A DNA stretch of 51,216 nucleotides, taken from NCBI GenBank assembly GCA_944390035.1, contig CALXOP010000113.1, positions 1 to 51,216 on the forward strand, given 5' to 3'. The DNA comes from an uncultured Alphaproteobacteria bacterium (GTDB lineage: Bacteria > Pseudomonadota > Alphaproteobacteria > RF32 > CAG-239). Shown here piece by piece: positions 3,363 to 43,510 of the stretch. A program made the position numbers and the translations under genes. The notes under the pieces are model-generated. The model did not search any database. It saw only the letters and a list, made by a program, of their open reading frames with translations, and had not been told where the DNA came from. Every line of letters begins with the position of its first letter. Position 1 is the first letter of the stretch.

Positions 3363-3394
3363 AAAAAAAAAGAGGACCAAAGGTCCTCTTTTTT
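3363..3394. terminator. Bidirectional intrinsic terminator between convergent genes
   Basis: An A9 run, then the stem AGAGGACC / GGTCCTCT with loop AAA, then a T-run. It sits between the stop of 2644..3357 (+) and the stop of virB11 (-). Confidence 0.75.
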
Positions 3395-4361
3395 ATGTTA
3401 CTTCGGTTACGGCACGGAGGTTGCCGTCACGGTTGATTTGCACTACTCTTAATTTGCGGTGCATTTCTTTAATGGTTTTTTCGCGGTCAATTGTCGGATA
3501 GCTGTGCAAAATACGGTCAACAAAGGCTTCATACGCGGCCTCTGAGCTCTCAGCGTGGATGGTTGCCAGGCAGTTATCGTGTCCGGACCCCATCAGCTCC
3601 CACAAAGCGCCGGCATTGTTAGTTGAAATCTCACCGCCGATAATGGCATCAGGCGTGAAACGCACTACCAAGTCAATGATTTTTGAATAGTCAAATTCAT
3701 TGGTTTGTTCGGTACGTGACATTACAATATGGACACGATTGGGATGCGGAACAATTAGTTCTCGCGTATCTTCAATGGTGATGATTCTTTTGTGAATATC
3801 CAAAATTTTTAGAAGATTGTTCAAAAAAGTTGTTTTACCGGTAGCGGTTGCACCGGATACCAAAATATGGTCACCGCGTTTGATACTTAACAGCAATCGT
3901 TCATAAGGGTCTTCCGGGTCTTGAATATCTTTCAGAGGATTAATTTTATGCAGGCTTTCACCTTGCTTTAAGCCGTAATCTTGCAGACCAAAGGCAACAT
4001 CATCGCTATGGACACGAATTGTTAAGGCGACGCCACCGGTGAGGTCATCTTGGTCATACATTACGTTGCGCCCGCAAATGGCTGAAAAACGGTGATCTCC
4101 CGGAATTGTGGCATAAACAACCGGCGTGCCTTGTACCGGATCAAACGGTAGTTCATAGGTGTTGGCAATAATATAGAGTAAATCCGTCAGGTATTCTTTG
4201 GTTAATTTTTCGTCTTTGTACATTACCCAAGGATAGGCTCTTTTGCCCCTGAGGCGCAGCCAAACCTGTCCGGAGCGGTTAATTGCCACTTCTTCTATGT
4301 TTTCTTGATTATACCAGTATGCCAAAGGGCGTAAAACTGACTCTAAAACTTTAAAACTCAT
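3393..4361 (-). CDS. virB11: Type IV secretion ATPase VirB11
   Basis: 322 aa. Walker A SGATATGKTTFLN, IEDTRE (Asp box), GGEI and ATIHA (His box) occur in the usual VirB11/GspE-superfamily order. GGGAG Shine-Dalgarno (SD) sequence upstream. It is the last gene of the virB-like operon. Confidence 0.9.
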   Translation of the reverse strand: MSFKVLESVLRPLAYWYNQENIEEVAINRSGQVWLRLRGKRAYPWVMYKDEKLTKEYLTDLLYIIANTYELPFDPVQGTPVVYATIPGDHRFSAICGRNVMYDQDDLTGGVALTIRVHSDDVAFGLQDYGLKQGESLHKINPLKDIQDPEDPYERLLLSIKRGDHILVSGATATGKTTFLNNLLKILDIHKRIITIEDTRELIVPHPNRVHIVMSRTEQTNEFDYSKIIDLVVRFTPDAIIGGEISTNNAGALWELMGSGHDNCLATIHAESSEAAYEAFVDRILHSYPTIDREKTIKEMHRKLRVVQINRDGNLRAVTEVT

Positions 4362-4372
4362 CTTCTTACTCC

Positions 4373-7300
4373 CTAAAACAGTTGCGGAACACTGCTATCC
4401 GTATTTTGCGTACTGCTGCTGGTGGCCGCGCCCGGCGTGCTTGAAGTTGCAAACGACGGTGGTGGCGGCGGTGTGGCGCCGGTAGAGGTATTTGAAATCA
4501 GGGCCGGCGGATTGTTGCTCTGCTTGTTGGTGGTTGCACCTTTGGTATCATCAATCAAAGCCGGCGTGCCACCTTTGGCCTCAACATCTATGGCTTGGGA
4601 TTCATAGATAACGTTGCCGGTACCGGTCGGAGAGGCTTCGGTCTTGCCTAAGCTCCGACGGTTCTTTTCGAGCTCACGTTTGCCGGTGACAACCGGGTCA
4701 TCAATAAAGACGTCTTTCTTACCCATGCCTCCCAATTCTTTCGGATTACGATCTCTGGTTCGCATCCACAAATCTACGTTCGGATAAACAATAATACGCG
4801 TACCGGCCGGAACATAGGTCAATGGGCGAATATTGGTTTTATCCGACAGGATTTGCTCAAATACTTGATTCATTTGGTTCAAGAAATTTTGGCGTGCATC
4901 ATTGGCGGCTTGTTGTTTCGGGGTTTCATTAACACCGCTGCTCTCATTATCATCATCTGCCATAATATATGAGGTATAGCTGGTGAGTGCCGTGGTCATA
5001 ATCGGCAAAGTATATTTCTTAAACAACTGCTGGTCTAAGTAACCAAGAGCACCACCGCGACCTTGGGCGTCGCCGGTAATTCCGCTGAAGACAAATAGCG
5101 AACCGTCCGGACGAATTAGTCTTTCCCAAGTAATCTGTACTTTAGCCGACTGCGATGTGGTTTCGGTCGTTCCCGTTAAGCTGCCGAGTGTGCCCATAAT
5201 TCGGCTACCTGCCGGAATTATGATGTTTCGACCTTCTTCGGCATAGACATTACGTTCAACAAAAGCGGTTACCGGTGTTGGGTTATTGCTGTCAATGGAG
5301 CGAGCAATAACGGCCGGTATCGGTTTATCGGCAAATATCATCTCACTCAAGTCAACCCGCCATGATGAAATGGCTTTTTTGATTCCTTGTTCATCCCAGT
5401 CTTTTTGCATACCGTCAAACGTATCCGGGCTAATATTGCTGCTGATTTTTCCGACTTGCATATTGCTCCGGCGTTCTTGTTGTGCAGCATCTAAGGCCAT
5501 AGCTCTTTGCGGGTCATATCTTTCACCCGGACCAAAACCGCCACCCGGACCTAGGTTGCCTCCAGGACCCGTGCCGGTACCATAAGCGCCACCGCGACCA
5601 AAGGTGCCGGCAGGAATAAACATATCGCCGGTGGAAGGTTTCGCTGTTTCTTCAATTCCGATTAATGCGCCGTCATCATCAATGACCAGACCATCCGGCA
5701 TACGATGTCCGACGACTTTTCCTTCCTTATTAACAACGCTGCCGTCTTCCATAATATCCCCTAAATATTCACCGTCTGGCGTTAGAGCAATCCCTAAAGA
5801 GCGGCGATATTTTTCGGTCATTTTCTCTTCTTCCGGTGAGAGGCCGATTTCGGGTATTTCGCCTGGACGATTGTACCAATCTGGTCTCTCTGTTGGTGAT
5901 TTTGGTGCAATGATAGAACCTATTGTGTTTCCATTAGCGTCTAGTATGGTTCCGTTTTCACCCAATTTGCCAATTATTTTTCCCGTATTGTCAACAACAC
6001 TACCGTCAGGCAAAACTTTTCCTATAACGTTACCGTTGGCATCATAAGCCACTTTGGTGCTGGCCAATTCTCCGACCAAATTACCATTTTTATCAACAAC
6101 CTTGCCGTTTTGTACCATTCCGATAACTTTGCCGTTTTCATCGGTAACGGTTCCATCCGCGTTAACATAGCCAAGTAAATTGCCATTAACATCAAAAACT
6201 TTTTCTCTGGCTACAATTTCACCGTAATACTGCAACGGTTTGGCAACGGCGACAATTCGACCATTTGTATCAATAATACTGCCATTTTTGGTGATTGTTC
6301 CCAGGATTGTATTATTAATGTCTCTTAGCTCGCCTTTTAGATTCAGTTCGCCTAAGATGCGGTTAGAATCATCTCGGATGTAAAAGTCCCGATTGCCACG
6401 GCCTTTTACTTCATCATTTTTATCAATCAAAAATCCTCGGCTTAAACGACCCAAATTTTGATTTACAAAAGATAAGACCGTTCCGTCTTTTTGGATAACG
6501 CCGATGACTTCGTAATCATTATCATAAATATAAAAATCATAAAGTGCATAACCGATTTTGCGGTTGTCGTTAATGACATTTCCTTCAAAGTCAACCTGAC
6601 CGATGGTGTTGCCTTGCGCGTCTAAGACTTTGCCTTCTTGGGTGATGCGTCCGATATATTTGTTGGCCAGGCTGAATGCATAACGATATTTAAAGAGATG
6701 TCCGATGGGAGCTCCGGTTTTGGAATTAACATTGCCGTTTGCTTGGGCATAGCCGATAAATTGGTTCTCCGAATTAACGATTTGACCGTCTAAAACGCTT
6801 CGACCCAAAAGAACCCCGTTAAAACTCATAACCGGATAATATTCAATGGTGTGTGCCAAAGAAACACCGTCATCACTTTTGAGAAAGCCTCGTTTATCAA
6901 TACAACCCAAAACATTATTATTGTAATTCAAAACTTGACCGTTGCTTGAAACCGTACCAATGATGTTGCCGTTATAATCAATGACTGCAGTCGAATTTAC
7001 GCTGTAGCCGATATATGTTCCGTTTTCGGAGACGACTTGTCCGTTTAACAAAGGGCGCCCCATAACGGTTTCTCGATAGTTGCGGACTTCTCCGCGAGAC
7101 GTAATAACACCCAAAAACGAACATTTATCATCAATAACCGTGGCATAATCTATCGCTCCACCAATGGCAGATCCCGTGTTATCTACCAAAATTGATTCGG
7201 CTGTGATTTTGCCAAGATTAGCTCGTCCAAAGTCTGTGGCTATTCCCAAATTATTAACATAACCACCTAACCGACCGTTAAACAACAGAGCCAGTTGCGC

Positions 7301-8989
7301 TGAGCTGCCTCGCCCTAATTGCGGCATCATATTAACCGAAGCGTTATCTGTGGCCGCAATAACCGAACCATCTGGAATATATTTGCCCAAAATGCTCCCG
7401 TCTGTCTTTTGTACGAGATTGCGATTGTTAAGCAGGCCAATCGAATTGCCTTCTGAATTTACAAAGTAGCCATTATCGATATTTTTGCCGATGATTAAAT
7501 TGCGCTCATCAACATTATAGCCTGATTGGGTTAATTTTCCTAAGGCCCGGACATTGTTGTTGGTTAATTGTCCATTGGGCATAATTTGCGCAATTGGGGT
7601 GCCCGTAATATTGTAAATTCCGGATAAAGGCAAGCCGCGTCCCGAAGGTTTGCCATCGGCTGAGAAGAGGTAACCAAACGGAGACATAAATTTTTTCTCT
7701 TCACCGTCCATTACGGCTCCACTAATGCCAACCAGTCCCAAAACTTGATTGTTGGAATTAATGGCTAACAAGTTCCGCATGGTGGCGCCAATGGCTCGGC
7801 CGGTATTTTCATAAGCCATGTTATCCATAATATAGCCGGCAGGCGTGCCCTCCATGGTGATAATTGAGCCATTTTTCAGGGCATGGGCTCTTAGCGTACC
7901 TCGATAATCAAAAACCGGACCGGCATTGATAATGCGACCAATCAAAGTTCCGTCTGCCGACAATACAGCCCCGCGCGGACCGACTTGTCCGACTTCATCT
8001 TTACCTTTGCGAATTTTGCCTTGCGGAACAACGCGTCCTAAATATTTGCCGTTTAAGTCTGTGGCCGTTGCTGAAAAATCAACCACAGAACCAATAATTT
8101 CTCCTTGCAGATTGGCAATTGTTTCGTCGGCTTGAACATGTCCTATAATCATGTTTTTGTCAATGACTTCACCATTGTATGTAACAAAACCGAGGTATTT
8201 GCCGGAATTATGTACAGCATAGCCTGAACGAACAATACTGCCGATAATTTGATTGTCGTTATTATAAACAAAACCGTTGGCCTTTACATAGCCAATCGTT
8301 ATGGCATCAAAATTGGTGACACTGCCGCCGGGGGCAACACTTCCGATAAACTCGCCACTCAGAGATACAACCATTTTAGAGGAAATGAGACGTCCGTCCA
8401 AAATATATTCTTGGCCAACCTTACGATAGGCATAACCATCAGGAGAAATAAAGCCGATTGCCTGTCCTTGCAAGTTGGTATATAAACCATCACCGGTTAG
8501 ACGTCCTACCGTTTTGCCATCGTCAGAATAAACCAATCCCGGAAAAAGAACCGAACCAACTACATTAAAGAAATCATCCAAAACCAATCCGTTAGGCAGT
8601 ACTTTGGCGATGATTTTACCGGAAGGTAAGCGAACGGAGCCATCGTTATTTACTTTGCCCAAAGGTTTGTTATCATTGCCGATGGCAATTCCTTGAGGGA
8701 CGACACCACCGATAATTTCCCCGTCAAAATTTAGAATTAAGCTGTCGGCGGTTACATTGCCGATTAGTTGATTGTCAAAGCTCACAACCTTACCGTCGGG
8801 TATGACTTTTCCGATTAAGTCACCGTTAAAGTCAACCGCCGTGATTTCCTGAGCTTGGGCATTAACGCAAAAAAGCAACATTCCAAACAGAATATTGACA
8901 AATTTCAGCGCTTTGACGCAACATTTTTTGTTTGTGCTTGCCCCTATCAACTCAGTTCCTCCGGTTCTTTGCAACTTCCTGCAATGCAT
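4373..8989 (-). CDS. virB10: Giant VirB10/TrbI-family protein (~1538 aa): N-terminal TM, ~1100-aa repeat region, Gly/Pro linker, VirB10 C-terminal domain, 125-aa Pro/Ser/Thr tail
   Basis: The C-terminal block (nt ~4760-5375) reads ISSWRVDLSEMIFADKPIPAV...ERNVYAEEGRNIIIPAGSRIMG...ITWERLIRPDGS...GALGYLDQQLFKKY...RPLTYVPAGTRIIVYPNVDLW, the TrbI/VirB10 barrel pattern. The N-terminal hydrophobic segment is FVNILFGMLLFCV. The listed start 8998 is TTG; the first ATG is at 8989. Confidence 0.85.
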   Translation of the reverse strand: MHCRKLQRTGGTELIGASTNKKCCVKALKFVNILFGMLLFCVNAQAQEITAVDFNGDLIGKVIPDGKVVSFDNQLIGNVTADSLILNFDGEIIGGVVPQGIAIGNDNKPLGKVNNDGSVRLPSGKIIAKVLPNGLVLDDFFNVVGSVLFPGLVYSDDGKTVGRLTGDGLYTNLQGQAIGFISPDGYAYRKVGQEYILDGRLISSKMVVSLSGEFIGSVAPGGSVTNFDAITIGYVKANGFVYNNDNQIIGSIVRSGYAVHNSGKYLGFVTYNGEVIDKNMIIGHVQADETIANLQGEIIGSVVDFSATATDLNGKYLGRVVPQGKIRKGKDEVGQVGPRGAVLSADGTLIGRIINAGPVFDYRGTLRAHALKNGSIITMEGTPAGYIMDNMAYENTGRAIGATMRNLLAINSNNQVLGLVGISGAVMDGEEKKFMSPFGYLFSADGKPSGRGLPLSGIYNITGTPIAQIMPNGQLTNNNVRALGKLTQSGYNVDERNLIIGKNIDNGYFVNSEGNSIGLLNNRNLVQKTDGSILGKYIPDGSVIAATDNASVNMMPQLGRGSSAQLALLFNGRLGGYVNNLGIATDFGRANLGKITAESILVDNTGSAIGGAIDYATVIDDKCSFLGVITSRGEVRNYRETVMGRPLLNGQVVSENGTYIGYSVNSTAVIDYNGNIIGTVSSNGQVLNYNNNVLGCIDKRGFLKSDDGVSLAHTIEYYPVMSFNGVLLGRSVLDGQIVNSENQFIGYAQANGNVNSKTGAPIGHLFKYRYAFSLANKYIGRITQEGKVLDAQGNTIGQVDFEGNVINDNRKIGYALYDFYIYDNDYEVIGVIQKDGTVLSFVNQNLGRLSRGFLIDKNDEVKGRGNRDFYIRDDSNRILGELNLKGELRDINNTILGTITKNGSIIDTNGRIVAVAKPLQYYGEIVAREKVFDVNGNLLGYVNADGTVTDENGKVIGMVQNGKVVDKNGNLVGELASTKVAYDANGNVIGKVLPDGSVVDNTGKIIGKLGENGTILDANGNTIGSIIAPKSPTERPDWYNRPGEIPEIGLSPEEEKMTEKYRRSLGIALTPDGEYLGDIMEDGSVVNKEGKVVGHRMPDGLVIDDDGALIGIEETAKPSTGDMFIPAGTFGRGGAYGTGTGPGGNLGPGGGFGPGERYDPQRAMALDAAQQERRSNMQVGKISSNISPDTFDGMQKDWDEQGIKKAISSWRVDLSEMIFADKPIPAVIARSIDSNNPTPVTAFVERNVYAEEGRNIIIPAGSRIMGTLGSLTGTTETTSQSAKVQITWERLIRPDGSLFVFSGITGDAQGRGGALGYLDQQLFKKYTLPIMTTALTSYTSYIMADDDNESSGVNETPKQQAANDARQNFLNQMNQVFEQILSDKTNIRPLTYVPAGTRIIVYPNVDLWMRTRDRNPKELGGMGKKDVFIDDPVVTGKRELEKNRRSLGKTEASPTGTGNVIYESQAIDVEAKGGTPALIDDTKGATTNKQSNNPPALISNTSTGATPPPPPSFATSSTPGAATSSSTQNTDSSVPQLF
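5620..8850 (-). repeat. Coding repeat region of virB10 (degenerate ~17-20-aa G-x-x-I-G-x-V-x-x-D/N-G-x-V units)
   Basis: The translation shows continuous recurrence of [DN]G.[VI].....G..[IL]G.V throughout. The units are most regular just upstream of the Gly/Pro linker (..VFDVNGNLLGYVNADGTVTDENGKVIGMV..YDANGNVIGKVLPDGSVVDNTGKIIGKL..). Confidence 0.8.
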
Positions 8990-11900
8990 AACCTGCAACC
9001 TTCTTATCTAAATTTACGTAAGAACCGTTATTTTTAAGATAACCGACATTTTTGCCTTCACTGTCTTCAACAACGCCTTCCGCATTGAGGCGGCCGACAT
9101 AGTTGCCGTCATTTCCTAAAATTGTGGCTCCTATCTTGTATATTTTTCCAATAATACTATCATTATTGTCAATGGCCAAATCACCCGAAATGGCTCGACC
9201 AATCAGACTACCTTCTTTGTTTCTGATTTTACCATCAAAATTAACATAGCCTACAACTTTATCTGAGTTATCAATAACAATATCACCGTGGACAACTTCT
9301 CCGATTAATTTTCCAGCAGCACTAATGACATTGCCGTCAGATAAGACACGACCAATGACTATATTTTCTCTGTCGATGACTTGTCCGTTCGGTAAAACTG
9401 CCCCTATGGTGTTACCGCCAAAATCAATTACCGTGCCGCGACGCAGCAGACTAAGATTTTTGTCAGTAGAACCGCCGGGAAGAACTGCCGTTATCACTTC
9501 ATTTTTCAAATCTATTACGTCACCGACCGAGTTGACGCGACCTTTATAGTTGCCCCAAATATCAACCACAATATTTTCAGGAATAACTTCGCCGATGAGC
9601 TTTCCTTTCAAATCTATCACTTTTCCGTCAGAAGTTGTAGTTCCGACCCTCGTGCCTTCCATACTGATAACCGTGCCGTCGGTTGTGGCATAGCCCAAAA
9701 ATGACCCGTCATAGCCAATGGCACTTCCTCTGGAAATAACACCGCCGCGATAAACGCCTTTGCTGTCAATAAAGTTTCCTTTGGCATCTATTCGGCCTAA
9801 ATTTTCACCAAAACGAGTGATAACTTGTCCGTCATGCGAGACTTGTCCAATCGTCTTTCCTTCAAAATCTGCCACAAAACCTTTTTTGACGGTGTTGCCG
9901 ATGAGAGAATTATAAAAGTTTAGGCCATCGCCGTGGAGCTTTCCGATTACGTTGCCTTTAGAATCGTAAACCTCACCACTTGGGAAAAGGCGGCCCTTGA
10001 AATTTCCTTCGGGTGAGATAATTGTTGATTTTTCATCCATCAAAACGCCCAAGATTTCGTTTTGGTCGTTGGCAACCAAATCATTGGCATAAAGTTTGGC
10101 ATCAGGTTGGCCACTAATGGCGACACGTCCGTTCGGGGCTACCAGATTTAGGAAATTACCGTGCAAATCATAGGCATTTGTTTTTTCCAGAACTCGACCG
10201 ATATAGGCCCCGTCTTTGTTAAAGACATCGCCATAGAGGCCAACGCAGCCAACTGGTTGTTGAGAAAGTGCTATGACCAAGCCATCGGCCGAAACTTGTC
10301 CCAAATATTCTCCATCATAAGACAGAGCAACGCCGTTACGAACCACACTGCCGATAACTTCACCTTTTTCGCTCAGAACCGTACCGTCGGGGTTAACACA
10401 GCCCACATAGACCCCTTCAGAAGAGCGAACAATTCCGTCTGTGCCGACATCTCCGATATAAGTGCAATTATTGTCAAACACTTTGCCGGTGCGGATGACT
10501 TCGCCGACATAGTTGTTTTCTGCATCAACAATTACACCATCAGGCATGGGTTTGAGTTTTGTTTCCGTATTGCCTTTTTTTATCTTGCCGTCCGAATCCA
10601 AATAACCGATATTTTTGCAACCATAGCCCACAACCAGTCCGCCTCGGATTAATTTGGCAACAACCTCCGAACCGGACGGATCGCGTACCAAACCGTTTGA
10701 CAGTACACGACCTACCGTTTTGTTGTTTTGAACAACCGTACCGTCATTGTTTAATTTTCCCAAAACCGTTCCTTTGGGAGTTATCGGTATCATACGAGTT
10801 TGAACCAAAGCACCCAAAGTTTTGTCTTGCGAGCTTACGATATTGCCATTGGCATCGACATAACCGATTTCATTGCCTTTGAGGTCAAATACTTTGCCGT
10901 TGGCATCAACATAGCCAACCACCTTACCATCTTTATCCAAAACCAGATTGACCATCTCGCCGGCTTTGCCGATAACATTACCTTCCAAGTCAACTAAAGT
11001 GCCATCATCTAGCATTTTGCCTATGATGTTGCCATTAAAATCAACAACATTACCGTTTTCATCAATGTAGCCTATCAAATTGCCGTCTTTATCATAAGCC
11101 AAACGCCTTTGCGCGCCGATATTCATATCGGCAACTTTTCCTATGACGTTACCGTTATTGTCCACAACCGTGCCGTCAGGCAAGACGCGCCCGATAATAT
11201 TACCGTTGGCGTCACGGACATTGCCGTCTTCATCAACATAGCCGATGACATTGCCATCCTTATCATAAACCAGACGTCTTCCCGGAACATTGGCAACTTG
11301 TCCAATCACATTGCCGTTGGCATCCACAATCGTCCCATCGGGCAAAACCTTACCAATGACATTGCCATTAAAGTCAACCACATTTCCGTTCTCATCAACG
11401 TAGCCGATAACATTGCCATTTTTATCATATGCTAACCGTCTTTGCGGGATAGTCGTTGACTTGCCGATAACATTGCCGTTTTCATCCATAACATTGCCGG
11501 CAGCATCAACTTTGCCGATAACATTGCCGTTGGAATCGATAACATTGCCGTTAGAATCTACAAAACCTATAACTTTACCGTTTTTGTCATGCGCTAATCT
11601 TACAGAACCGCCGGCGTTTCCCAAAACATTTTTGCCGACAACCTTGCCGTTTTCATCTACATAGCCGACAACATTGCCGTTTTTATCTACCACCGAGCCA
11701 TCGGGCATCACAACACCCAAAACATTGCCGTTTTCATCAACGGCAACGCGGCCTTGCTTGCTGACACGGCCTATGACGTTACCATTGGCATCAACCGCTT
11801 CTCCGTTGGCATTTAATCTACCGGTCACATTACCGTTTTTATCGACGACCGTGCCGTCGGGCATAACCCGGCCGATGATGTTGCCATTTTTATCATACAC

Positions 11901-12875
11901 AAAACCGGCATCAACCGCTTTACCGATAACATTACCGTTCAAATCAACGACCGTGCCGTCGGGCAACATACGACCGATAATATTGCCGTCTTTGTCCACC
12001 ACGGTACCGTCAGGATTAACATAGCCGATAACGTTGCCGTTAGCATCATAAACCAAGCGGCGGTTTTCGCCAACGCCTATGACATTGCCGTTTTCATCAA
12101 CGACCATGCCGGCGGAATTCACCCGTCCGATGACATTGCCGTTAGAATCGCGAACATAGCCGTCTTCATCAATGGTGCCGATTACCTCGCCATTGGGGCC
12201 GATTGCATTGCGCGTGCGCAAACCTTTGGCTGTGTTATCTGCATTAGCACCGATGTTATCTGTCGGTACTTGCTCACAAAAGTTGCAATCTTCTTTGCGG
12301 ATGGCATTACCTTCAACCGGAACTTTTTCAGACTTGGCGTTGGCGGTTGTTAAGTTTGATTCATGCCAGGTTATAATAAAGTTGTTTTGAACATTTCCGG
12401 GGACAACCGGGGTCCAACTCATGGTAATATCACAAGTCTCATGGCCGCGGAGTTCTTTATCCGTACAATCGTCCTTAAACGTAAATCCATCAAAAGGCGG
12501 CTCAGCTAACTGGACAGAGACAATTTTGATGGCAGCTTTGGCATTGGTCCCTATGGTTAACACATTTTTGGCATCCGTTCCTAAGACAACCTGCCCCATT
12601 TGAACCGGATTAGGCGTTGTGGTAATCGGTGGCTCTGCCTCGTCTATCATACCGAATTCGATATTATTGCTCTGCGTATTGTCAGATGTAATGTTTAAGG
12701 CATCATCATTGGTGGTAAAGACGGGCTCGGTATATTCATTTTCAACCGGACCACTCTGCATTAACAACATTACGCCCAAAACAAAGATGACAAACGAGGT
12801 AATACCAACCACAAAAATAATGCGGTTGGTTTTCTTTATATAACTCTCCGAATGTGTTAATACCTCTTTGCTCAT
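8952..12875 (-). CDS. Giant bitopic repeat protein (~1307 aa) paralogous to the VirB10 repeat region; no VirB10 C-terminal domain
   Basis: ATG at 12875 overlaps the virB9 TGA (ATGA). TM helix IIFVVGITSFVIFVLGVMLLM. A unique ~180-aa region follows with a possible Ig-like segment (..CDITMSWTPVVPGNVQNNFIITW). After that come more than 20 N-G-N-[VI]-I-G units (by-eye count) and then degenerate units to the C-terminus. Confidence 0.75.
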   Translation of the reverse strand: MSKEVLTHSESYIKKTNRIIFVVGITSFVIFVLGVMLLMQSGPVENEYTEPVFTTNDDALNITSDNTQSNNIEFGMIDEAEPPITTTPNPVQMGQVVLGTDAKNVLTIGTNAKAAIKIVSVQLAEPPFDGFTFKDDCTDKELRGHETCDITMSWTPVVPGNVQNNFIITWHESNLTTANAKSEKVPVEGNAIRKEDCNFCEQVPTDNIGANADNTAKGLRTRNAIGPNGEVIGTIDEDGYVRDSNGNVIGRVNSAGMVVDENGNVIGVGENRRLVYDANGNVIGYVNPDGTVVDKDGNIIGRMLPDGTVVDLNGNVIGKAVDAGFVYDKNGNIIGRVMPDGTVVDKNGNVTGRLNANGEAVDANGNVIGRVSKQGRVAVDENGNVLGVVMPDGSVVDKNGNVVGYVDENGKVVGKNVLGNAGGSVRLAHDKNGKVIGFVDSNGNVIDSNGNVIGKVDAAGNVMDENGNVIGKSTTIPQRRLAYDKNGNVIGYVDENGNVVDFNGNVIGKVLPDGTIVDANGNVIGQVANVPGRRLVYDKDGNVIGYVDEDGNVRDANGNIIGRVLPDGTVVDNNGNVIGKVADMNIGAQRRLAYDKDGNLIGYIDENGNVVDFNGNIIGKMLDDGTLVDLEGNVIGKAGEMVNLVLDKDGKVVGYVDANGKVFDLKGNEIGYVDANGNIVSSQDKTLGALVQTRMIPITPKGTVLGKLNNDGTVVQNNKTVGRVLSNGLVRDPSGSEVVAKLIRGGLVVGYGCKNIGYLDSDGKIKKGNTETKLKPMPDGVIVDAENNYVGEVIRTGKVFDNNCTYIGDVGTDGIVRSSEGVYVGCVNPDGTVLSEKGEVIGSVVRNGVALSYDGEYLGQVSADGLVIALSQQPVGCVGLYGDVFNKDGAYIGRVLEKTNAYDLHGNFLNLVAPNGRVAISGQPDAKLYANDLVANDQNEILGVLMDEKSTIISPEGNFKGRLFPSGEVYDSKGNVIGKLHGDGLNFYNSLIGNTVKKGFVADFEGKTIGQVSHDGQVITRFGENLGRIDAKGNFIDSKGVYRGGVISRGSAIGYDGSFLGYATTDGTVISMEGTRVGTTTSDGKVIDLKGKLIGEVIPENIVVDIWGNYKGRVNSVGDVIDLKNEVITAVLPGGSTDKNLSLLRRGTVIDFGGNTIGAVLPNGQVIDRENIVIGRVLSDGNVISAAGKLIGEVVHGDIVIDNSDKVVGYVNFDGKIRNKEGSLIGRAISGDLAIDNNDSIIGKIYKIGATILGNDGNYVGRLNAEGVVEDSEGKNVGYLKNNGSYVNLDKKVAGYALQEVAKNRRN
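8990..12190 (-). repeat. Coding repeat region (NGNVIG-type units; includes three ~54-57-aa super-repeats at ~10950-11445)
   Basis: At the DNA level, AACATTGCCGTT / GACATTGCCGTT recurs densely on the + strand between about 10960 and 12170. The super-repeats start with RRL(A/V)YDK(N/D)GN at about 11440, 11278 and 11107. Confidence 0.85.
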
Positions 12876-14512
12876 TGCGTCCTTACTACGCTGCAAAATA
12901 CCCCGTTACGACCTAAGCGACTGCAGACATTGTCGCCGGATTCCAAACTCTTGACTGGCCCAACACGTAAGTGGAACAACTCTTTGCCTTGTCCGTCAGC
13001 CGGGGCATCAACCGAGAAAAACGGCTCATAACGACTTAAGACATCAGGATACTTTTTAGAGAGCTCGCTCCACAAATTCTCCAAATTCGAGACATTGGCG
13101 TCCGTTCCTAATTCGATAGAGATATTGGAACTATCGGCACCGACAAAACCCGAACCAAAGCCATAACCACCTTTTGAACCGGCCTGTCCGCCTACATTGC
13201 CGGCATATTGATTATTATTTTTAATATGCTGCATTTTCGAGTAATCGTAGCCATCGTTAGGCGGTTGGAAACCTATGTTGACCCCATTGCCATTGCCTGA
13301 GTTAGCACCGCTATTGCCGTAGCGCGGTACAACAATTTCGCTTTGTCCGACTTGAATGTCATATTGTCCCGGCATACCGTTGGCTGAAGAATTAAATTCA
13401 CTGTCTCTGCCGGTACCGCCCGTCGGACGCATGGTTCCACCCGGAATTGGTTGCGGAACATCCCATGCAGAATCTTCAAAATCCGTTGCATAAGTGGCAT
13501 TTTCCAATCCGGCATCATCAGAGCGACGCATCTTGAGGCAAACTATTCTCTTGCCGTTGCGCAATACCATATCACCAATTCCTTCAACAACAATCAAGCG
13601 ATTGTTCGGTCCTTTGGTTCTAAATCCGACCGGAACTTCTATTCTTTCAACAATCAAGGTGACAATCGGGCGTTGGGTCATATTGAGCGCCTTTTCACCA
13701 AAATCAATATAAGTGAAAATATCATCCCGCCATACTCTTTCCGGCGCAATCACAACATCATCCGGATTTGGAACATAGACTTCAATATCAAAACGGAATT
13801 TGCTCGGGTCGACTGGAATTTCTTTTATCCAATCACTTCTTTGAAAGCGTTTGGTAAAAAGAGAATCTGCCGAATGGGCATTGTTTGCCTTGTAGGATGA
13901 GGCATTTACACCCGAACCGCCGCCAACACTTCCGCCAGCAATGCCGGCTCCTCTTGAACCTGCCGGACCGTCAATCACATCAATATCAATAATTGAATTG
14001 GTCAAGCGCTCTGTGTTGACACCTTCACTTTTGACATAAAATACATATTTATTCCCTGAACGGCCAAAGATAATAATATTGGTATCGACCCCGACATTTG
14101 CTCCCTTACGCGGATAGAGCAAAATTGTATTCGGACCGGAAATTTGGCCATCAAACGTGGCATTGTCACCAATATACATGTCCTCAATTAGCTCCCACTC
14201 CGGAAAATTGAGCAAAGTTATCATACCTTCACGTAGGCGTATCGGCAAGATTAAATCCGGCGACCAATAATATTTTGAATATGCCGGCTTGCTTTGTCCT
14301 TCGCCCAGATTTTGGAGCGGGTCCAGCCAAGCGGCTTGTGTCATTCCAAGAGAGTTAAAACCGGCATAACCCAGATTCATCGGCATATATTGTCCCTGAC
14401 TTTGGTCGGCATTTTGATCCAAACTTCCCATCGTGGCTTGCGAAAAAGCATTACGGCTGACCATCAGCGTAATTGCTCCGATTAATAAAATTTTGCCAAC
14501 TTTCAAAATCAT
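12872..14512 (-). CDS. virB9: VirB9/CagX-family protein with C-terminal SPOR-like domain (546 aa)
   Basis: Signal peptide. N-terminal domain YYWSPDLILPIRLREGMITLLNFPEWELIEDMYIGD...ILLYPRKGANVGVDTNIIIFGRSGNKYVFYV. C-terminal domain DDIFTYIDFGEKAL...RLIVVEGIGDMVLRNGKRIVCLK. A Gly/Asn-rich linker follows, then ISIELGTDANVSNLENLWSEL...FHLRVGPVKSLESGDNVCSRLGRNGVFCSVV (SPOR-like). Confidence 0.85.
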   Translation of the reverse strand: MILKVGKILLIGAITLMVSRNAFSQATMGSLDQNADQSQGQYMPMNLGYAGFNSLGMTQAAWLDPLQNLGEGQSKPAYSKYYWSPDLILPIRLREGMITLLNFPEWELIEDMYIGDNATFDGQISGPNTILLYPRKGANVGVDTNIIIFGRSGNKYVFYVKSEGVNTERLTNSIIDIDVIDGPAGSRGAGIAGGSVGGGSGVNASSYKANNAHSADSLFTKRFQRSDWIKEIPVDPSKFRFDIEVYVPNPDDVVIAPERVWRDDIFTYIDFGEKALNMTQRPIVTLIVERIEVPVGFRTKGPNNRLIVVEGIGDMVLRNGKRIVCLKMRRSDDAGLENATYATDFEDSAWDVPQPIPGGTMRPTGGTGRDSEFNSSANGMPGQYDIQVGQSEIVVPRYGNSGANSGNGNGVNIGFQPPNDGYDYSKMQHIKNNNQYAGNVGGQAGSKGGYGFGSGFVGADSSNISIELGTDANVSNLENLWSELSKKYPDVLSRYEPFFSVDAPADGQGKELFHLRVGPVKSLESGDNVCSRLGRNGVFCSVVRTQ

Positions 14513-14532: not shown

Positions 14533-15264
14533 CTATTGAACTCTGTTTAGTGTCAATGAATATCTATCAACCGTAAACCCAACCGGATTGTTTAAGCGTT
14601 CGCCGTATTTAACGCTTTTTTGAACATAGCCAACCCGCAAAGAGGCTGTCCAGTAGTTGATTTCCGGCTTGGTCGAATCCGGATACATATCTTGTGTTTC
14701 ATACTCAACTTGCCACAAGCCTCTGCCCAACTCATTAACCGTCAGAATACGAACATTTCGCTGTAAGCTCTTGGTGCGGATAATATCAAGCGCCCTTTTA
14801 GCGGTTTTGTTCAAGAATTCTTGATATACCGCAGGAGAGGACATTTCTTGTATCGGGCCACCCGGCATCCAGCGTGCTTCCATTTCGGGGATATCTCTGT
14901 CAAACGAACTTCTTTGCAGAACATATTCTCTGACAAACACTTCGGTAATTGCCTTTTCATCTGCCAAATTTCCTCTAACCGGAACAATATTGTAAACTTG
15001 TTCCCCTTTGGCCTGAAATGTCAGCAAAAAAGGCTCTATGCGAAACAGCGGCATAACTTGAATAATTGCCAGAAACAAAACAACATTGCAGCATAGGCTA
15101 ATTGCCGTGATGACGGCAAAGGCACGTGCGGTCCAGAGATACCTCTTTTCACCGACATTGGCGACAAAGACATCTTCCGTCGTGCGTGATTTGACAGTTT
15201 GTTGAGGCTGTGCCTGCCGCCCTATAAGGCGTTGCTGTGTATTATTTTCGAGGCGATTATCCAT
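14533..15264 (-). CDS. virB8: VirB8-family protein
   Basis: 243 aa. The N-terminal TM helix is AFAVITAISLCCNVVLFLAII. The periplasmic domain has ..VFVREYVLQRSSFD.. and the C-terminal signature NYWTASLRVGY...NPVGFTVDRY. Confidence 0.85.
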   Translation of the reverse strand: MDNRLENNTQQRLIGRQAQPQQTVKSRTTEDVFVANVGEKRYLWTARAFAVITAISLCCNVVLFLAIIQVMPLFRIEPFLLTFQAKGEQVYNIVPVRGNLADEKAITEVFVREYVLQRSSFDRDIPEMEARWMPGGPIQEMSSPAVYQEFLNKTAKRALDIIRTKSLQRNVRILTVNELGRGLWQVEYETQDMYPDSTKPEINYWTASLRVGYVQKSVKYGERLNNPVGFTVDRYSLTLNRVQ

Positions 15265-15272
15265 TGGTTTTC

Positions 15273-15461
15273 CTAAATTGTTTCAACAAACCAATCGGGA
15301 AGTGTTTTCGGCAACTCGACCTGCATGCAAGCGCAAGGTGATAACTTCAACTCATCAACACCTTTACCGACGCCGACCGGCTCTGCCTCGTAATATGACC
15401 CAAATATGCCGCAAGATGACAGCAGCATTAGAACAAAAAGCATAATTATCTTTTTTGACAT
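15273..15461 (-). CDS. Small lipoprotein, VirB7-like by size and position
   Basis: 62 aa. Signal peptide with lipobox (LLSSC). It lies between two virB8 paralogs, directly upstream of virB8-virB9. I see no sequence signature beyond this. Confidence 0.5.
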   Translation of the reverse strand: MSKKIIMLFVLMLLSSCGIFGSYYEAEPVGVGKGVDELKLSPCACMQVELPKTLPDWFVETI

Positions 15462-15574: not shown

Positions 15575-16333
15575 CTATAATATTTCTACTTCGGCTTGAG
15601 AATAGCGCGTTACCGTAAAACCTATCGGATTTATCAATCTTAAGCCCGTAAATTCTCGTCCGGGGATGAAAAAGGCCGTAACTGAAGCAGTCCAATATTT
15701 TACCGTCATAATGCGAGCACGCGTCTTTTTATCAACCGCGTATTTGGAAAGCTCATAAGTTTTAAAATCGACTTTCCAGACCGGACTGCGCTCACCGCCT
15801 TGCTTACCGATAGAGATAATTTCAACCTCTCTGACCACGCCGTCATGGCGCATTTTTTCCCAAATGCTGTCGCGGTATTGCGAAAACTCGTTATACACCC
15901 TCGGAGCTGATAAAAAGTTCATCATACCGCCGTCATACCAGCGCACCTGCATTTCCTTTTCATCATCAATTATGGTATTGCGCAGAATAACAAATTGCGC
16001 CACAAACATTTCCATTAATTTGTTTTTGGAGGCCATTCGATTGGTGATGGCTTCGGCTCTGACAATGCCATCCGACGTATCTTGATTAATGATTAAAAAC
16101 GGCTCGACCGAAACCTGCGGGGCCAGCCTGAACAAAGCTAACGAAAAGCTCATAAAAACCAAGAGTGAAAGTATGGCAAAAAAGATAAACAAGCGAGACA
16201 GCCACATATAATATTTGAGCTTAAAGCCTTCTTTTTCTTGCTCTGTTTCGCTGATGAACTCGTGCGTTTGACCGTTGGAATCCGTCAATGACAGAACCTT
16301 TGCTCCTTCCAACTGCGGGTTTATGTTGTTCAT
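15575..16333 (-). CDS. virB8: VirB8-family protein, second paralog
   Basis: 252 aa. TM helix LFIFFAILSLLVFMSFSLALF. C-terminal KYWTASVTAFF...INPIGFTVTRY parallels the first paralog. Confidence 0.8.
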   Translation of the reverse strand: MNNINPQLEGAKVLSLTDSNGQTHEFISETEQEKEGFKLKYYMWLSRLFIFFAILSLLVFMSFSLALFRLAPQVSVEPFLIINQDTSDGIVRAEAITNRMASKNKLMEMFVAQFVILRNTIIDDEKEMQVRWYDGGMMNFLSAPRVYNEFSQYRDSIWEKMRHDGVVREVEIISIGKQGGERSPVWKVDFKTYELSKYAVDKKTRARIMTVKYWTASVTAFFIPGREFTGLRLINPIGFTVTRYSQAEVEIL

Positions 16334-16348: not shown

Positions 16349-19300
16349 TTAGTATGCTGCACAGAAAGGTATCGGGAACGAGTTTAGTTGTTTTTCAAAT
16401 TCTTCATCGGCTTTTTTCTTGTATTCCGACGTTACTTGATGGTTTACTTCTTCCGTTTTTATTCTCTCGTCTAATTCCGAACCGGAATCCGTGGTATCGC
16501 TGAGTGAGATATACGCCTCTTTATCTTTGCGCAAAGCAGTAAATATATTCTTAATCTTATCTACTCTTTCTTGAACAACTTCGTTATCCATTACATTTAC
16601 GCTATCCAGCTGTTCCGTGGCTTCATTAATGAGGCTGTTTTTATAGCGATTCAGCGTTTCTTTGGTTAGGTCATAGTCTTCTTGTTTGGCTAAATCATAA
16701 TCCGCACTCGGAACAAAGCCGATTTCTTCAAACTTTTCAAACAGCTCGGCTTTGGCTTCATCTACACTTAATTTCATTTCTTCAAGTGCTTGACGATAGC
16801 TGATTTCTTGCTCAACAAAGGTTAAAAAATTACCGATTTGGTTATGGTCAAGCATAGCTTTTTCATAGACTATATCTTGCATATTTTCCGTATAAGATGA
16901 GCCTTCTTGCTTTTCTTCGGCCATCTTTTCCAAGCGTGCAAATACCGTTTCAGGCGCATCGTTGTAGAACAAGCCGGAATCTGTGGCTTTGAGCAAAGTG
17001 CCAAGTTCACTGTTTGAGCCAGTATTTCCAACCTCTTGAGCAGTTAGTACTTTTGCTGATGCCGTGACCTCTTCTGCTTTGTCTTTGATGGTGACATATC
17101 TTTTCAGCTGTGCCAAGAGCCCTGATGCCCCTTCCAGACTTATTTCTTGGCATTGCGGCAGTTGGCGCCAATTTTCCCACTCGTCAGAAACTTTTGTGCT
17201 ATAAACGCGGAAAGTGCCGTCCGTGTTGGTTAGATCAATGATGTAATTATCCAAAATGCAAGGATAACGTCCGCCGCGCATAAAGTTTGCCGCCTCGTTG
17301 CCTTCGGAAAGCAAGGTTTTTAAATCTATATCTTTATCAACAAAGGCTTTGTTCTTTAATATCAATTTCCAAATTTCGGGGAATTTTCCACCGCTGTTGA
17401 GCAAGCCTTCTTTGCTGACGCCGCCATTGCTGGTTTTGGTGACATTATCGTGGTCAACATCGTCAAAATGAACAACTTCTCTCAGCGGGGGCAAGTATTC
17501 CTGAAGTGAATTCTTAGGCGCCATAAAGTCACGCGCTTTGCCGTAAGAGCCGACAAAATAGTCATCATCGGCTTGCATACAAGCATCATCCACGCAGGCT
17601 TGTTCTATCAGCATTTTTTGGAACATTGAGGTCAGCGGTTTGATAATTGATGCTGTTTTGGCATAGGCCCCGACGGCAGATGAAAAATTCTGCAGACCTT
17701 CAACCGGCAAGTCCTTTAATTTGGTCATTAGGTCTTGGTGCAATTTGACAATCTCATCACCATAGGCACCGATATAGACATCTTCTCCCAAATTCATAAT
17801 TGCGTTTTGAGTATCATCAACCAGTTGAACAGCATAACTCTTGGTATCAGAAGTCAGACCGCTGGCTGTTTGCAAAATTCGTAGCAGGCTAAACGGCGGA
17901 ATTATTCCGTCTGCATCGGCAACCGGAAGTCCGATTTTGTTTTGATAATAAGCAACCAAATCGAGCGTTTCTTTGGCTTTGCGCTTTTCTTCTATATATT
18001 TTTTGGCTTCTTCCAATTTTTGATTATAAGCCTGTTCAATTTGCTGAACTTGAGAAATATAATTCTGTTCTTCGGCAGAAATTTGTTCTTCTACTTGCTC
18101 TAATTGTTTCTTTAAATTAGCCACCTCTTGGTCTTTGCTATCAACCTGAGTTTTTAGACTTGCGGCTAATTCGGTATTTTGTTCAACTTCGGCTTGGTAT
18201 TGATTAATTTCTTCTTTGGCAAGCGACATACCTTCCGTATCTTCCAAATTCAGAACTTCGCTTTCTTTTTCGGTTGAGTCGGTGTAATCTGCCGTTTGTG
18301 CCTCTTGGGTTTCTTCATCTACCTTATCAGTTGTTTCCAACGTGGTATATTCCATCGTAGCTTCTGCCTTAGAATCTAGCTCGGCATCTAATTTGGCCTT
18401 TTCTTGATTATAGTCAAAAGTGTTATACTGTGCGCCAAAATACAGTGTACGGCTGAGTGCATATTTTGAGCCGTTTCCGGGTGCAAAATTACCATTTTCG
18501 CTAAACGGGCGACGGCGGAACAAGGTCTTTTTCTCATTAGCGGCCGGGGCTTCAATCGATGTATCATCTTCCGGATAGAGGCTGACCGAACCGTCCGGAT
18601 TACTGGTAATGTTGTTAGGTTGTAAATTTTGTTTTTCCAAAACTTGTTGCTGTTTTGCCTGATAGTTCAGCTTATTCATCTTATCTTTATATTCGGAGAT
18701 GGCTTCACCGGTGTCAAACAGCATCCTTTGTTCGGTATTTTCTTGGTATTCGGTTGAGTGTACTTCTTTGGTGGTCTCCGGTGTGACCTCATAGGTTTCA
18801 TCAGCATATTCAACACTACTTTGCTTTGTAATGTTATCTTCAATGTCTCCTTGGCGGTCTTCTTGGTCTTGGAGGATTTTTCCTTGAGTATCTACACCGG
18901 CTTGAGCCTTTAATTTATTTTGTTGTGCGGTGTTGAGTTGTTCGGAGTAATCCGCCAGTAAACCGGAGGCTCTGTCTAGCTTGTCTTGCAGGCTTTTTTT
19001 GCGGCTTTCCAGACTTTGGAGGCGTGATTGTTTGCTGTTTAGGGCCTTTTGTAAGAGTTCGTCTTTATTCTTTTCAAGGCTTTCTAAGACAGAGGCCGGA
19101 TCGGAGGCGGCATCTTCTTGTGCCAGACGAGCCGACAAGCTATCCAGTCCGGCGCGATTGTTGGCTCTTTCATCGGCATCTTCGGTCAAGATATCATTAA
19201 GCGGATAGGCTATTTCAACAATAATCGACGTCACATCATATTGTTGCAGATAGTCTTTTATGTTGCCGTATTTACCGCCTATATATTGATTATAAAAACT

Positions 19301-22352: not shown

Positions 22353-23134
22353 GAGTCCTCCTCGGCATAAGTAAATTGTCTTGCCTGTTGAGTTGCATTA
22401 TATTCAAAAAGCATCGTGTTCATCAACATTATTTTGCGAAATCGTTTAGCCATCTCCATTGATTTGGCTTTGGTGCTTTGAATAATATCGCGGGTATTTT
22501 CCTTGTCTGTTTCTTCGGCTTCTTCTTTGGCCAGGTTTGCTCTGTCACTAAAAGCGACGGCATATAAGTTGGCAAAATTAGCACGTTGAATTTCGCTCAT
22601 TTTTTCTTCTTGTGCATTATAAATTTCGACCAAATCCGTTGTTTCTGAACTATCTGCATTATCAGCAGTTGATTGATTGCCCGAAGATGATGAGGTGCTT
22701 GTGTTGGATTTTGGGCGTTGCATTAAATAGTTTTTTTGAACTGCTGAGCTGAGTGCTTTGGCATCATTTAAATCTACCTTGGTGGCAAAACCCGGCATTG
22801 AGCTACCCAAAGTCTGGAGTGAACCTTCAGGATCATTGGCAAAATTTTGCACCGCATTTACCTTATCTGTCACGGCACTTATGTTATTGCTAATATCATT
22901 TTTAACCGAATTTACGGTATTGACAGCACTTTTGACCGTGCCCATAGCACCTTCGGCTGCAGAACGTATATCTTGCTGAATTTCGTTCAAATCTTGTTGA
23001 ATAGAGCGCGCTTCTTCCAAACCGGTTTTTATCGGACCTAAAACAGTTCCTTGTATGGCTTCAATATCCGCATAAGATATTTGCGGCCAAAATAGGCTAA
23101 GCGCCAGCAGAAAATATATTAACTGCTTTTTCAT
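22349..23134 (-). CDS. Secreted helical protein (261 aa), VirB5/TrbJ-like by size, signal peptide and position
   Basis: Signal peptide ending ISYA. It then reads DIEAIQGTVLGPIKTGLEEARSIQQDLNEIQQDI and is helical throughout. Its ATG overlaps the upstream TGA (23131-23134). The family assignment is an inference. Confidence 0.6.
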   Translation of the reverse strand: MKKQLIYFLLALSLFWPQISYADIEAIQGTVLGPIKTGLEEARSIQQDLNEIQQDIRSAAEGAMGTVKSAVNTVNSVKNDISNNISAVTDKVNAVQNFANDPEGSLQTLGSSMPGFATKVDLNDAKALSSAVQKNYLMQRPKSNTSTSSSSGNQSTADNADSSETTDLVEIYNAQEEKMSEIQRANFANLYAVAFSDRANLAKEEAEETDKENTRDIIQSTKAKSMEMAKRFRKIMLMNTMLFEYNATQQARQFTYAEEDS

Positions 23135-25362: not shown

Positions 25363-25442
25363 CATAACCTCCATACGACAAGTCACCGTATATTATCTAT
25401 AATACCAAATTTTCGGCCATTGATAAATGGCTATTATGCTCA

Positions 25443-37236: not shown

Positions 37237-37248
37237 GGAATTATTACA

Positions 37249-40012: not shown

Positions 40013-40019
40013 GTTTTAA

Positions 40020-41681: not shown

Positions 41682-41691
41682 GAGTTGACTT

Positions 41692-42813: not shown

Positions 42814-42817
42814 TATT

Positions 42818-43417: not shown

Positions 43418-43510
43418 CTGAAATTTGTAACAAAAGATTAAATAAATTTTATTCTTTTTGATGTTAGACTAGCAGTTATTGTTATAAGTGTTTTGGTTTA
43501 AGAGGAAATA

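Follow-up and report, generated by a model that had tools for sequence, protein, structure and literature searches.

The window analysed here is a stretch of 51,216 nucleotides (nt) of contig CALXOP010000113.1 from an uncultured alphaproteobacterium. It carries on its minus strand a type IV secretion system (T4SS) operon in which an open reading frame (ORF) for a protein of 1307 amino acids (aa), labelled X in this study, lies between virB9 and the virB10 gene bearing the TrbI domain. The TrbI-bearing gene located 3' of X in such split-type genomes is referred to as VirB10-C. Our analysis indicates that X is probably the N-terminal half, anchored in the inner membrane, of a giant VirB10 whose coding sequence is divided between two neighbouring genes with little space between them. 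No T4SS subunit other than VirB10 spans both membranes, and VirB10 is thought to carry the ATP-driven conformational signal gating the outer-membrane channel.

The reading frame of X is open over positions 8952–12896 of the minus strand, and the ATG at 12875–12873 gives a protein of 1307 aa starting with MSKEVLTHS. This ATG overlaps the virB9 stop codon TGA (12874–12872) in the sequence ATGA, and the ORF is flanked by the CagX domain of virB9 on its 5' side and by TrbI on its 3' side, which agrees with the position given in the original prediction. Every X orthologue opens with M-[SA]-K-E-x-L-T-H-S at the same start. Since the N-termini of the orthologues match the ATG start, the in-frame TTG at 12896 is not the start of X. 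The following features were assigned to the X gene:

8952..12875, minus strand: coding sequence of X, 1307 aa, stop codon TGA at 8952–8954 (ORF and ATGA overlap; orthologues begin at the equivalent site)
12880..12884, minus strand: Shine-Dalgarno-like AAGGA, 4 nt 5' of the ATG, within the 3' end of virB9 (read from the sequence)
12822..12875, minus strand: cytoplasmic tail, aa 1–18, motif L-T-H-S-x-x-Y-[IV]-[KR]-K-T-N-R (alignment of X orthologues and single-gene VirB10s)
12756..12821, minus strand: sole transmembrane helix, aa 19–40 (Kyte-Doolittle maximum 2.87; AlphaFold2 helix aa 8–40)
12300..12626, minus strand: periplasmic ASH/PapD-like immunoglobulin (Ig) beta-sandwich, aa 84–192, followed by CxxC at aa 197–200 (AlphaFold2 predicted local distance difference test (pLDDT) 81–89, Foldseek, weak Pfam and NCBIfam matches)
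10896..12212, minus strand: regular array of 17-aa beta-hairpin units of the beta-flower/DUF3659 type, aa 222–660 (spacing and motif counts; Bflower_2 2.6e-87; AlphaFold2 hairpins with pLDDT ~80–90)
11076..11615, minus strand: lineage-specific expansion within the regular array, aa ~421–600, three super-repeats of 54–57 aa ('RRLAYDKNGN...') (DNA repeat spacing 171/162/162)
8955..10895, minus strand: degenerate hairpin array, aa 661–1307 (motif and profile analysis)
8955..9635, minus strand: conserved C-terminal module, aa 1081–1307 (C-termini of 32 orthologues; conservation scan)

Both hydropathy and the AlphaFold2 model gave X the bitopic topology of VirB10 proteins, with a short cytoplasmic N-terminus and one transmembrane helix, as had been proposed. 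The Pfam search also confirmed the earlier statement that X has no TrbI domain: no match to PF03743 was obtained at E ≤ 0.01, NCBIfam gave no VirB10 or ComB10 match, and the sequence search of the PDB returned no match for X. As X lacks TrbI, it falls outside the VirB10/TrbI family as defined.

The main evidence comes from genomes in which the same slot of the operon is filled by a single gene. In the loci L005, L086 and L087, virB9 is directly followed by the gene of a 2202–2271-aa VirB10 and then by virB11, with no gene in between, whereas X and VirB10-C fill the virB9–virB11 slot only together. X aa 1–215, comprising the tail, the transmembrane helix, the Ig-like domain and CxxC, aligned over the full length with the N-terminus of the ~2200-aa single-gene VirB10s. 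This 215-aa alignment contains 11 invariant columns including four Cys; C137, C148, C197, C200, W154, P156 and W170 are invariant among the X orthologues and the single-gene VirB10s. On a profile of 64 single-gene VirB10s, X aa 1–340 was colinear with positions 1–330, and VirB10-C aa 1123–1400 fell at the TrbI end. Meanwhile, the module of tail, transmembrane helix and Ig-like domain is missing from VirB10-C both in the window and across the clade. By these alignments X is homologous to the N-terminal two-thirds of the giant VirB10s, and X and VirB10-C jointly have the exact domain set of the single-gene protein. As the anchor module is on X and not on the TrbI half, we read the pair as a split VirB10.

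The spacing of the genes fits this reading as well, with ATGA at the virB9/X junction and TGA-g-TTG together with GGAGG at the X/virB10 junction. The likeliest start of VirB10-C is the TTG at 8950–8948, 1 nt past the stop codon of X, with a GGAGG Shine-Dalgarno motif at 8962–8958. The features of VirB10-C were assigned as follows:

4373..8950, minus strand: VirB10-C, 1525 aa, TrbI-bearing (Pfam TrbI and Bflower_2, 4e-61; N-termini of orthologues)
8852..8950, minus strand: predicted Sec signal peptide, aa 1–33, MIGASTNKKCCVKALKFVNILFGMLLFCVNAQA, with cleavage before QE (leader pattern by eye)
8312..8851, minus strand: mature N-terminal module, aa 34–213 (identity 0.70–0.84 across 42 orthologues)
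4766..5338, minus strand: TrbI/VirB10 C-terminal barrel domain (Pfam PF03743, 1.7e-33)

The leader of VirB10-C consists of a basic n-region and a poorly conserved h-region of 10–14 residues, and in 17 of the 17 sequences compared it ends with [AV]-x-A right before the invariant QEITAIDFNG. In the split-type VirB10s, the [AV]-x-A of the leader thus adjoins the invariant QEITAIDFNGDLIGKVIPDG. None of the 67 single-gene VirB10s and none of the X proteins contains the ITAIDFNG motif. The leader therefore looks like a cleavable Sec signal peptide rather than a transmembrane anchor. Across the 42 orthologues, aa 34–213 form the best conserved stretch of VirB10-C, equal to or above the TrbI domain. 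The profile search of the PDB with this TrbI domain returned ComB10, CagY, VirB10, TrwE and TraF, including 6gyb, 7o3j and 3jqo, with CagY at 1e-13. The domain scores best against ComB10, a protein of DNA-uptake T4SSs (PDB 2bhv, 1.9e-28; NCBIfam ComB10, 108 bits). Past TrbI, VirB10-C ends with a low-complexity Pro/Ser/Thr-rich tail (aa ~1440–1525; 4373–4630, minus strand; …PPPPPSFATSSTPGAATSSSTQNTDSS…) that shows an identity of 0.28 across the orthologues. The length of VirB10-C is far more variable than that of X, ranging from 1430 to 2070 aa among the close relatives L006, L012 and L015; the L006 protein (5828–11203) is ~220 residues longer than that of the window, yet its TrbI domain is 96% identical.

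The original prediction had explained X as a VirB10 arm duplicated into a stand-alone inner-membrane partner. The common repeat family, the membrane anchor and a probable duplication were upheld by our results, but not the addition of a copy to a normal VirB10, since the anchor module sits on X. If that explanation held, VirB10 would be complete and self-anchored, and X would be an extra paralogue derived from the duplicated repeat arm and acting as an accessory partner in the inner membrane. The arms of X and VirB10-C do belong to one repeat family, with 26% identity over 1128 aa (E 3e-104) and a common unit consensus; the two proteins together are longer than the single-gene form, the N-terminal module of VirB10-C matches the C-terminal region of X well (87 bits), and VirB10-C opens with a hydrophobic segment. 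However, the tail, transmembrane helix and Ig-like domain of the single-gene VirB10 are found on X instead of VirB10-C, and the short, poorly conserved h-region ending in [AV]xA typifies signal peptides that are cleaved off rather than anchors. In addition, no genome was seen that has both a full-length single-gene VirB10 and X. We consider an extra paralogue of this kind unlikely and regard X as the anchoring half of a split VirB10.

The distribution of the two forms was examined in protein and genome collections. A search of 5.8 billion proteins yielded about 32 stand-alone, TrbI-free X orthologues of 1100–1580 aa with 38–52% identity, as well as more than 60 proteins of about 2100–2290 aa in which X-type repeats are joined with TrbI. 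When one genome per GTDB species was scanned with a TrbI profile, at least 580 relatives were obtained, and the locus counts reported here refer to the closest 80. All of these 80 loci are of the split type and belong to uncultured Alphaproteobacteria from the guts of humans, ruminants, chickens, rabbits and mice, for example 'Proteobacteria bacterium CAG:495' and 'Candidatus Scatocola faecigallinarum' (Rhodospirillales according to NCBI). In 66 of them X lies immediately 5' of a signal-peptide-type VirB10 in the shared order virB9-X-virB10-virB11, and most of the others are short contigs. The earlier claim that canonical virB operons lack a gene in this place is true of the textbook operons, but in this lineage such a gene is standard. 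The split loci L001–L004 show the order VirB8, VirB7-like small ORF, VirB8, VirB9, X, VirB10 (1407 or 1513 aa) and VirB11. The L001 locus is chromosomal, as it lies beside yidC, rnpA and rpmH, and a tblastn search of 72,556 plasmids with the N-terminal module of X gave no match.

In dozens of alphaproteobacterial species from the gut, both halves are conserved and show strong purifying selection. The X protein of the nearest relative, L007, is 90.7% identical to that of the window over 1307 aa with 0 gaps, and the identities of its VirB9, VirB10 and VirB11 are 91%, 83% and 99%, respectively. The X of L006 is 84% identical and also gap-free. Between the window and L007, the proportions of nonsynonymous (pN) and synonymous (pS) differences in X are 0.057 and 0.70, which corresponds to a ratio of substitution rates (dN/dS) of ~0.03 with similar values in the N-terminal, regular and degenerate parts. 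The low dN/dS and the gap-free orthologues indicate that X is a functional gene whose individual repeat units are kept in place.

These data also bear on a further explanation of the arrangement, an artefact or pseudogene in which a frameshift or stop codon splits one virB10 frame, or in which programmed frameshifting joins the two frames. The ORFs of X and VirB10-C are indeed adjacent, in different frames and 1 nt apart, and the single-gene form occurs elsewhere. Nevertheless, 66 independent assemblies at species level have the split, and its junction differs among the split loci (a 1-nt overlap, an 8-nt gap or a 1-nt spacing). The leader peptide and the Shine-Dalgarno motif are conserved at the second start, dN/dS is ~0.03 in all parts of X, and the virB10 frame stays open 5' of its start only over a short stretch that lacks conservation. 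The finding named in advance as fatal to the original prediction, a single reading frame for both ORFs, was not borne out: the split is conserved, the junction spacings differ, and both genes are under purifying selection. We regard this explanation as effectively refuted already and give it almost no weight.

In the regular array of X, the repeats are spaced by 17 residues, and 24 units in aa 228–654 match [ND]G.[VILF][VILT]G, 14 of them strictly as N-G-N-[VI]-I-G; more than 20 regular units had been counted by eye before. Degenerate units run on from this array to the C-terminus. VirB10-C shows the opposite arrangement, with degenerate units N-terminally and more regular ones near aa 920–1100, toward the TrbI end. 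The mirror-image order of the repeats noticed earlier was thus reproduced both by motif positions and by the alignment of X with VirB10, and every factual statement of the original prediction proved correct. The most regular part of X, aa ~421–600, is missing from most of the 42 orthologues (gap fraction 0.68–0.88). Conservation reaches 0.66–0.67 in the last ~230 aa as compared with 0.42–0.58 in the middle of the protein, and nearly all of the 32 C-termini compared end with the near-invariant ...SNGSF[IV]DxDKxV[SA]GYxLPEVA[KR]NRRN. The C-terminal module (aa 1081–1307) is a candidate contact surface for VirB10-C.

The Pfam search assigned the repeats of X to the beta-flower clan. Bflower_2 (PF21785) matched in 12 stretches with E 2.6e-87 and 288.6 bits (cut-off 38), and the other two families of the clan, Bflower (PF21784) and DUF3659 (PF12396), matched with E 2.2e-40 and 138 bits (cut-off 25) and with E 4.9e-45 and 151.7 bits (cut-off 24.8), respectively. 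Matches of this strength lie far outside chance expectation, and by these scores X is a genuine beta-flower/DUF3659 repeat protein. Beta-flower families were introduced in 2023 on the basis of AlphaFold models (Durairaj et al. 2023, PMC10584680). Their antiparallel beta-hairpins are short, turn at [DNEQ]xxG and form shallow barrels of 8, 10 or 12 strands with 4-, 5- or 6-fold symmetry. Beta-flowers described so far have about 100 aa and 8–12 strands in a small closed barrel, and they are often lipoproteins (PMC10584680), whereas X has about 60 hairpins in one chain and is tied to a T4SS core subunit.

The AlphaFold2 model of X aa 1–520 consists of a helix (aa 8–40), a disordered linker (aa 41–79), a beta-sandwich (aa 84–192, pLDDT 81–89) and, from aa 222, a regular train of two-stranded hairpins with pLDDT of about 80–88. 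Foldseek matched the sandwich to the PapD-like domains of CEP192 and HYDIN (6fvi, 2e6j; E ~1.5e-6, TMt 0.62–0.67), and the sequence matches of this domain lie below the curated cut-offs (Pfam ASH, PF15780, 19.7 vs 27; NCBIfam choice-of-anchor-D, NF012200, 23.7 vs 45). The Ig-like part of the N-terminal module (profile positions ~70–165) recurs 5–40 times in many unrelated giant proteins of 1000–7000 aa, and by its matches it is a widespread repeat domain of the ASH/choice-of-anchor-D type. A model of the repeats alone (X aa 219–520) reached a pLDDT of 83 and a predicted template modelling score (pTM) of only 0.48. Foldseek found local similarity of its hairpins to Rhs/YD, CROP and choline-binding repeats at TM-scores of ~0.1, and no Tubby-like match in the PDB. 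On the basis of the models, the hairpin unit is secure, and the higher-order shape may be either closed flowers or an open ribbon.

We also considered whether X might be a surface adhesin, a secreted substrate or an Rhs/YD-type toxin-delivery protein that is only housed in the operon. The hairpin unit locally resembles that of Rhs/YD proteins both in sequence and in the 3Di alphabet: X scored 74.3 bits against YD_repeat_2x (NCBIfam TIGR01643, cut-off 15.8) and 82 bits against RHS_repeat (PF05593, cut-off 22; E 2.5e-23, with no single stretch significant alone), and Foldseek gave a local 3Di similarity to Rhs cores with E 1e-13. Ig-like modules are also common in giant surface proteins. In spite of this likeness, X has a 22-residue transmembrane helix and no cleavable signal peptide, and it lacks the Rhs core, the cocoon and the toxin tip and stands in another gene context. 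RHS_core reached 14 bits against a cut-off of 2000, and the TM-score to Rhs cocoon structures was ~0.10 at a root-mean-square deviation of ~23 Å. X showed neither a toxin at its C-terminus, which is the conserved ...PEVAKNRRN tail, nor an Rhs cleavage motif; 66 loci keep X in the fixed place between virB9 and virB10, and in the sister genomes the X-type module and arm are covalently part of VirB10. By its profile scores X is not an Rhs protein, and an adhesin, substrate or toxin carrier is highly improbable.

At the DNA level, the copies of the repeat unit of X are 60–75% identical to each other and form no long exact repeats, which rules out a collapse of the array in the assembly as well as its recent homogenisation. 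Recent concerted evolution or gene conversion between X and virB10 was likewise rejected, as the DNA units are 60–75% identical and orthologous units keep their positions.

Several results weigh against the interpretation of the pair as a split VirB10. The repeat interiors of X and VirB10-C mapped ambiguously on the profile of 64 single-gene proteins, falling mostly on two 'attractor' regions (profile positions 240–570 and 1450–1550), and pairwise BLAST gave many near-equal high-scoring segment pairs. It should be noted that the cleavage of the VirB10-C leader was judged by eye, and an uncleaved leader would leave VirB10-C anchored too. X and VirB10-C total 2600–2850 aa as compared with 2130–2290 aa for the single-gene form; as the pair is 400–600 aa longer, a simple break is not the whole story. 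Finally, in a neighbour-joining tree of TrbI rooted with ComB10 and CagY, the split clade was not nested inside the single-gene clade: the split sequences were monophyletic in 17 of 60 bootstraps, the single-gene forms were monophyletic, and the root was unstable with very distant outgroups.

The last result would be compatible with a history in which the two-gene state were ancestral and the ~2200-aa single-gene VirB10 arose later by a recombination between the paralogous arms that deleted the junction, the function of X being unchanged. In the outgroup-rooted tree one split lineage, that of the L001 type, branches first, and a recombination between homologous repeats would yield an in-frame fusion of about the observed length. 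However, the bootstraps of this tree are poor, and the N-terminal module of the L001-type X is 52% identical to other X proteins as compared with 21–32% to the single-gene forms. The firm grouping of this module with the remaining X proteins suggests that the TrbI tree is affected by long-branch attraction. Neither the NRRN tail nor the leader nor ITAIDFNG has left a relic in 67 single-gene proteins, and, to our knowledge, every characterised VirB10 is one chain from the transmembrane helix to TrbI. A later fusion appears less likely to us. Because all characterised VirB10s are single chains and the N-terminal module groups all X proteins together, we favour the fission of a single-gene giant VirB10, accompanied by some repeat duplication, as the most parsimonious origin of the split.

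A duplication probably accompanied the split, as the pair is longer than the single-gene form and the best match of the N-terminal module of VirB10-C within X is the C-terminal region of X. With only 26% identity between the arms, their separation must be old. When hidden Markov models of the X C-terminus and of the VirB10-C N-terminus were applied to the single-gene proteins, no adjacent pair of matches marking the ancestral junction was obtained. No short, repeat-less VirB10 with the N-terminal module of X was present among 1.84 billion representative proteins, and the short matches were truncated fragments.

The split organisation suggests how such a VirB10 might work. The TrbI half would be exported by Sec and, after cleavage of its leader, would insert with VirB9 and VirB7 into the outer-membrane core. 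X would stay in the inner membrane with its tail in the cytoplasm, near the energy centre of VirB4, VirB8 and VirB11. In the periplasm the repeat arms of X and VirB10-C may associate, probably through the unusually conserved last ~230 aa of X and the first ~180 aa of mature VirB10-C, and this pairing would rebuild non-covalently the envelope-spanning, energy-sensing bridge of VirB10. T4SS cores have roughly 14-fold symmetry. With more than 2000 hairpin residues per pair and ~14 copies per machine, the arms would form a very large periplasmic beta-sheet scaffold. We tentatively propose, as a possibility rather than an expectation, that the VirB10 bridge of this chromosomal T4SS is built from the inner-membrane anchor X and a Sec-exported outer-membrane barrel half that dock via conserved beta-hairpin modules, with ~28 arms per machine forming a multi-megadalton periplasmic cage.

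In comparison with the canonical VirB10/TrbI proteins, such as A. tumefaciens VirB10, pKM101 TraF, R388 TrwE and Xanthomonas VirB10, the pair has the same slot after virB9, the tail and single transmembrane helix on X, and the TrbI barrel on the partner gene. The canonical proteins are of about 380–450 aa in one chain with a Pro-rich linker, whereas in the window the chain is distributed over two genes and enlarged by an Ig-like domain and by beta-hairpin repeats of more than 2000 aa. CagY of Helicobacter pylori, a VirB10 orthologue, reaches about 1900 aa through repeats located N-terminally to TrbI (PMC5954226, PMC2581425); these modules are alpha-helical, and the near-identical DNA repeats that code for them undergo recombination in vivo (PMC2581425, PMC2194252). 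In contrast, the pair described here is a split protein with beta-hairpins, DNA copies of 60–75% identity and arrays that are stable in position between species. CagY-type recombining repeats were not found in X, which shows 0 indels over 1307 aa between species at 84–91% identity, and the arrays of X and VirB10-C, unlike those of CagY, do not appear to be recombination-prone. DotG (IcmE) of Legionella and Coxiella is a VirB10-like TrbI protein with a variable central repeat region thought to form a periplasmic channel (PMC6761968), but it has pentapeptide repeats, belongs to a type IVB system and is encoded by one gene. CagY and DotG are thus precedents for a repeat-expanded VirB10, both as single genes (PMC5954226, PMC2581425, PMC6761968). 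We found no paper on giant beta-hairpin VirB10s or on a split VirB10.

The remaining genes of the operon, together with virB9, were located as follows:

31759–32208, minus strand: virB2 (operon annotation)
28348–31734, minus strand: 1128-aa ORF between virB2 and virB4, no Pfam or NCBIfam family beyond coiled-coil noise
25443–27875, minus strand: virB4 (operon annotation)
23131–25386, minus strand: 751-aa ORF, again with coiled-coil noise only in Pfam and NCBIfam
22349–23134, minus strand: 261-aa ORF, as above
20976–22352, minus strand: 458-aa ORF, as above
16349–20962, minus strand: 1537-aa ORF, as above
15575–16333, minus strand: first virB8 (operon annotation)
15273–15461, minus strand: 62-aa lipoprotein ORF with lipobox LLSSC between the two virB8 paralogues (sequence)
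14533–15264, minus strand: second virB8 (operon annotation)
12872..14512, minus strand: virB9, CagX domain and C-terminal SPOR domain (Pfam and sequence)
3393–4361, minus strand: virB11 (operon annotation)

The five family-less ORFs (1537, 458, 261, 751 and 1128 aa) occupy the slots expected for equivalents of VirB3, VirB5 and VirB6, and similar large ORFs also precede virB8 in L001 and L003. The 62-aa ORF is, judging by its lipobox, likely a VirB7-like lipoprotein, and a small ORF of 62–69 aa is present in the equivalent place in L001, L003, L005 and L086. The SPOR domain of VirB9, a peptidoglycan-binding domain that textbook VirB9 proteins lack, follows a Gly/Asn-rich linker (aa 465–544; 12881–13120, minus strand; Pfam 5.8e-6) and may attach the core complex to the wall of the cell. 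Neither a VirD4 coupling protein nor a relaxase was found in the window (1–51216) or beside virB11 in L001, L003, L005 and L086.

The operon as a whole resembles the rvh T4SS of Rickettsiales, for which RvhB8a-b, RvhB7 and RvhB6a-e are listed (Gillespie et al. 2009, PMC2653234). Both are chromosomal P-type systems that have two copies of VirB8 and, ahead of virB9-virB10-virB11, a small gene for a VirB7-like lipoprotein, and the large family-less ORFs of the window take the place expected for VirB6-like genes. In rvh, the VirB10 protein RvhB10 is of the ordinary single-gene kind and virB11 is followed by virD4. The window operon differs in both respects, as its VirB10 is not an ordinary single gene and no virD4 follows virB11. 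Outside the operon, a type IVb pilus-like cluster (34935–44473, plus strand) is oriented divergently from it and comprises TcpQ, a secretin, a PilO-like protein, a T2SSE ATPase, a T2SSF platform protein and a second, PilT-like ATPase. A trio of genes for VWA, PP2C phosphatase and Ser/Thr kinase proteins lies at 45739–48627 (plus strand).

Genes of the X and VirB10-C type are annotated publicly as 'DUF3659 domain-containing' or 'YD repeat' proteins, and they could be renamed the N-terminal and C-terminal halves of VirB10. The results also flag a conserved, unannotated T4SS in the gut Alphaproteobacteria of humans, ruminants, poultry, rabbits and mice. They place the beta-flower/DUF3659 hairpin repeat in a definite cellular setting, the periplasmic arm of a secretion machine. 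A VirB10 of two polypeptides with a beta-sheet cage would, if true, be an architecture described for no T4SS. The VirB10 bridge encoded by two genes would be a natural experiment on whether energy coupling needs covalent continuity, and the single-gene sister genomes offer a direct comparison with the split form.

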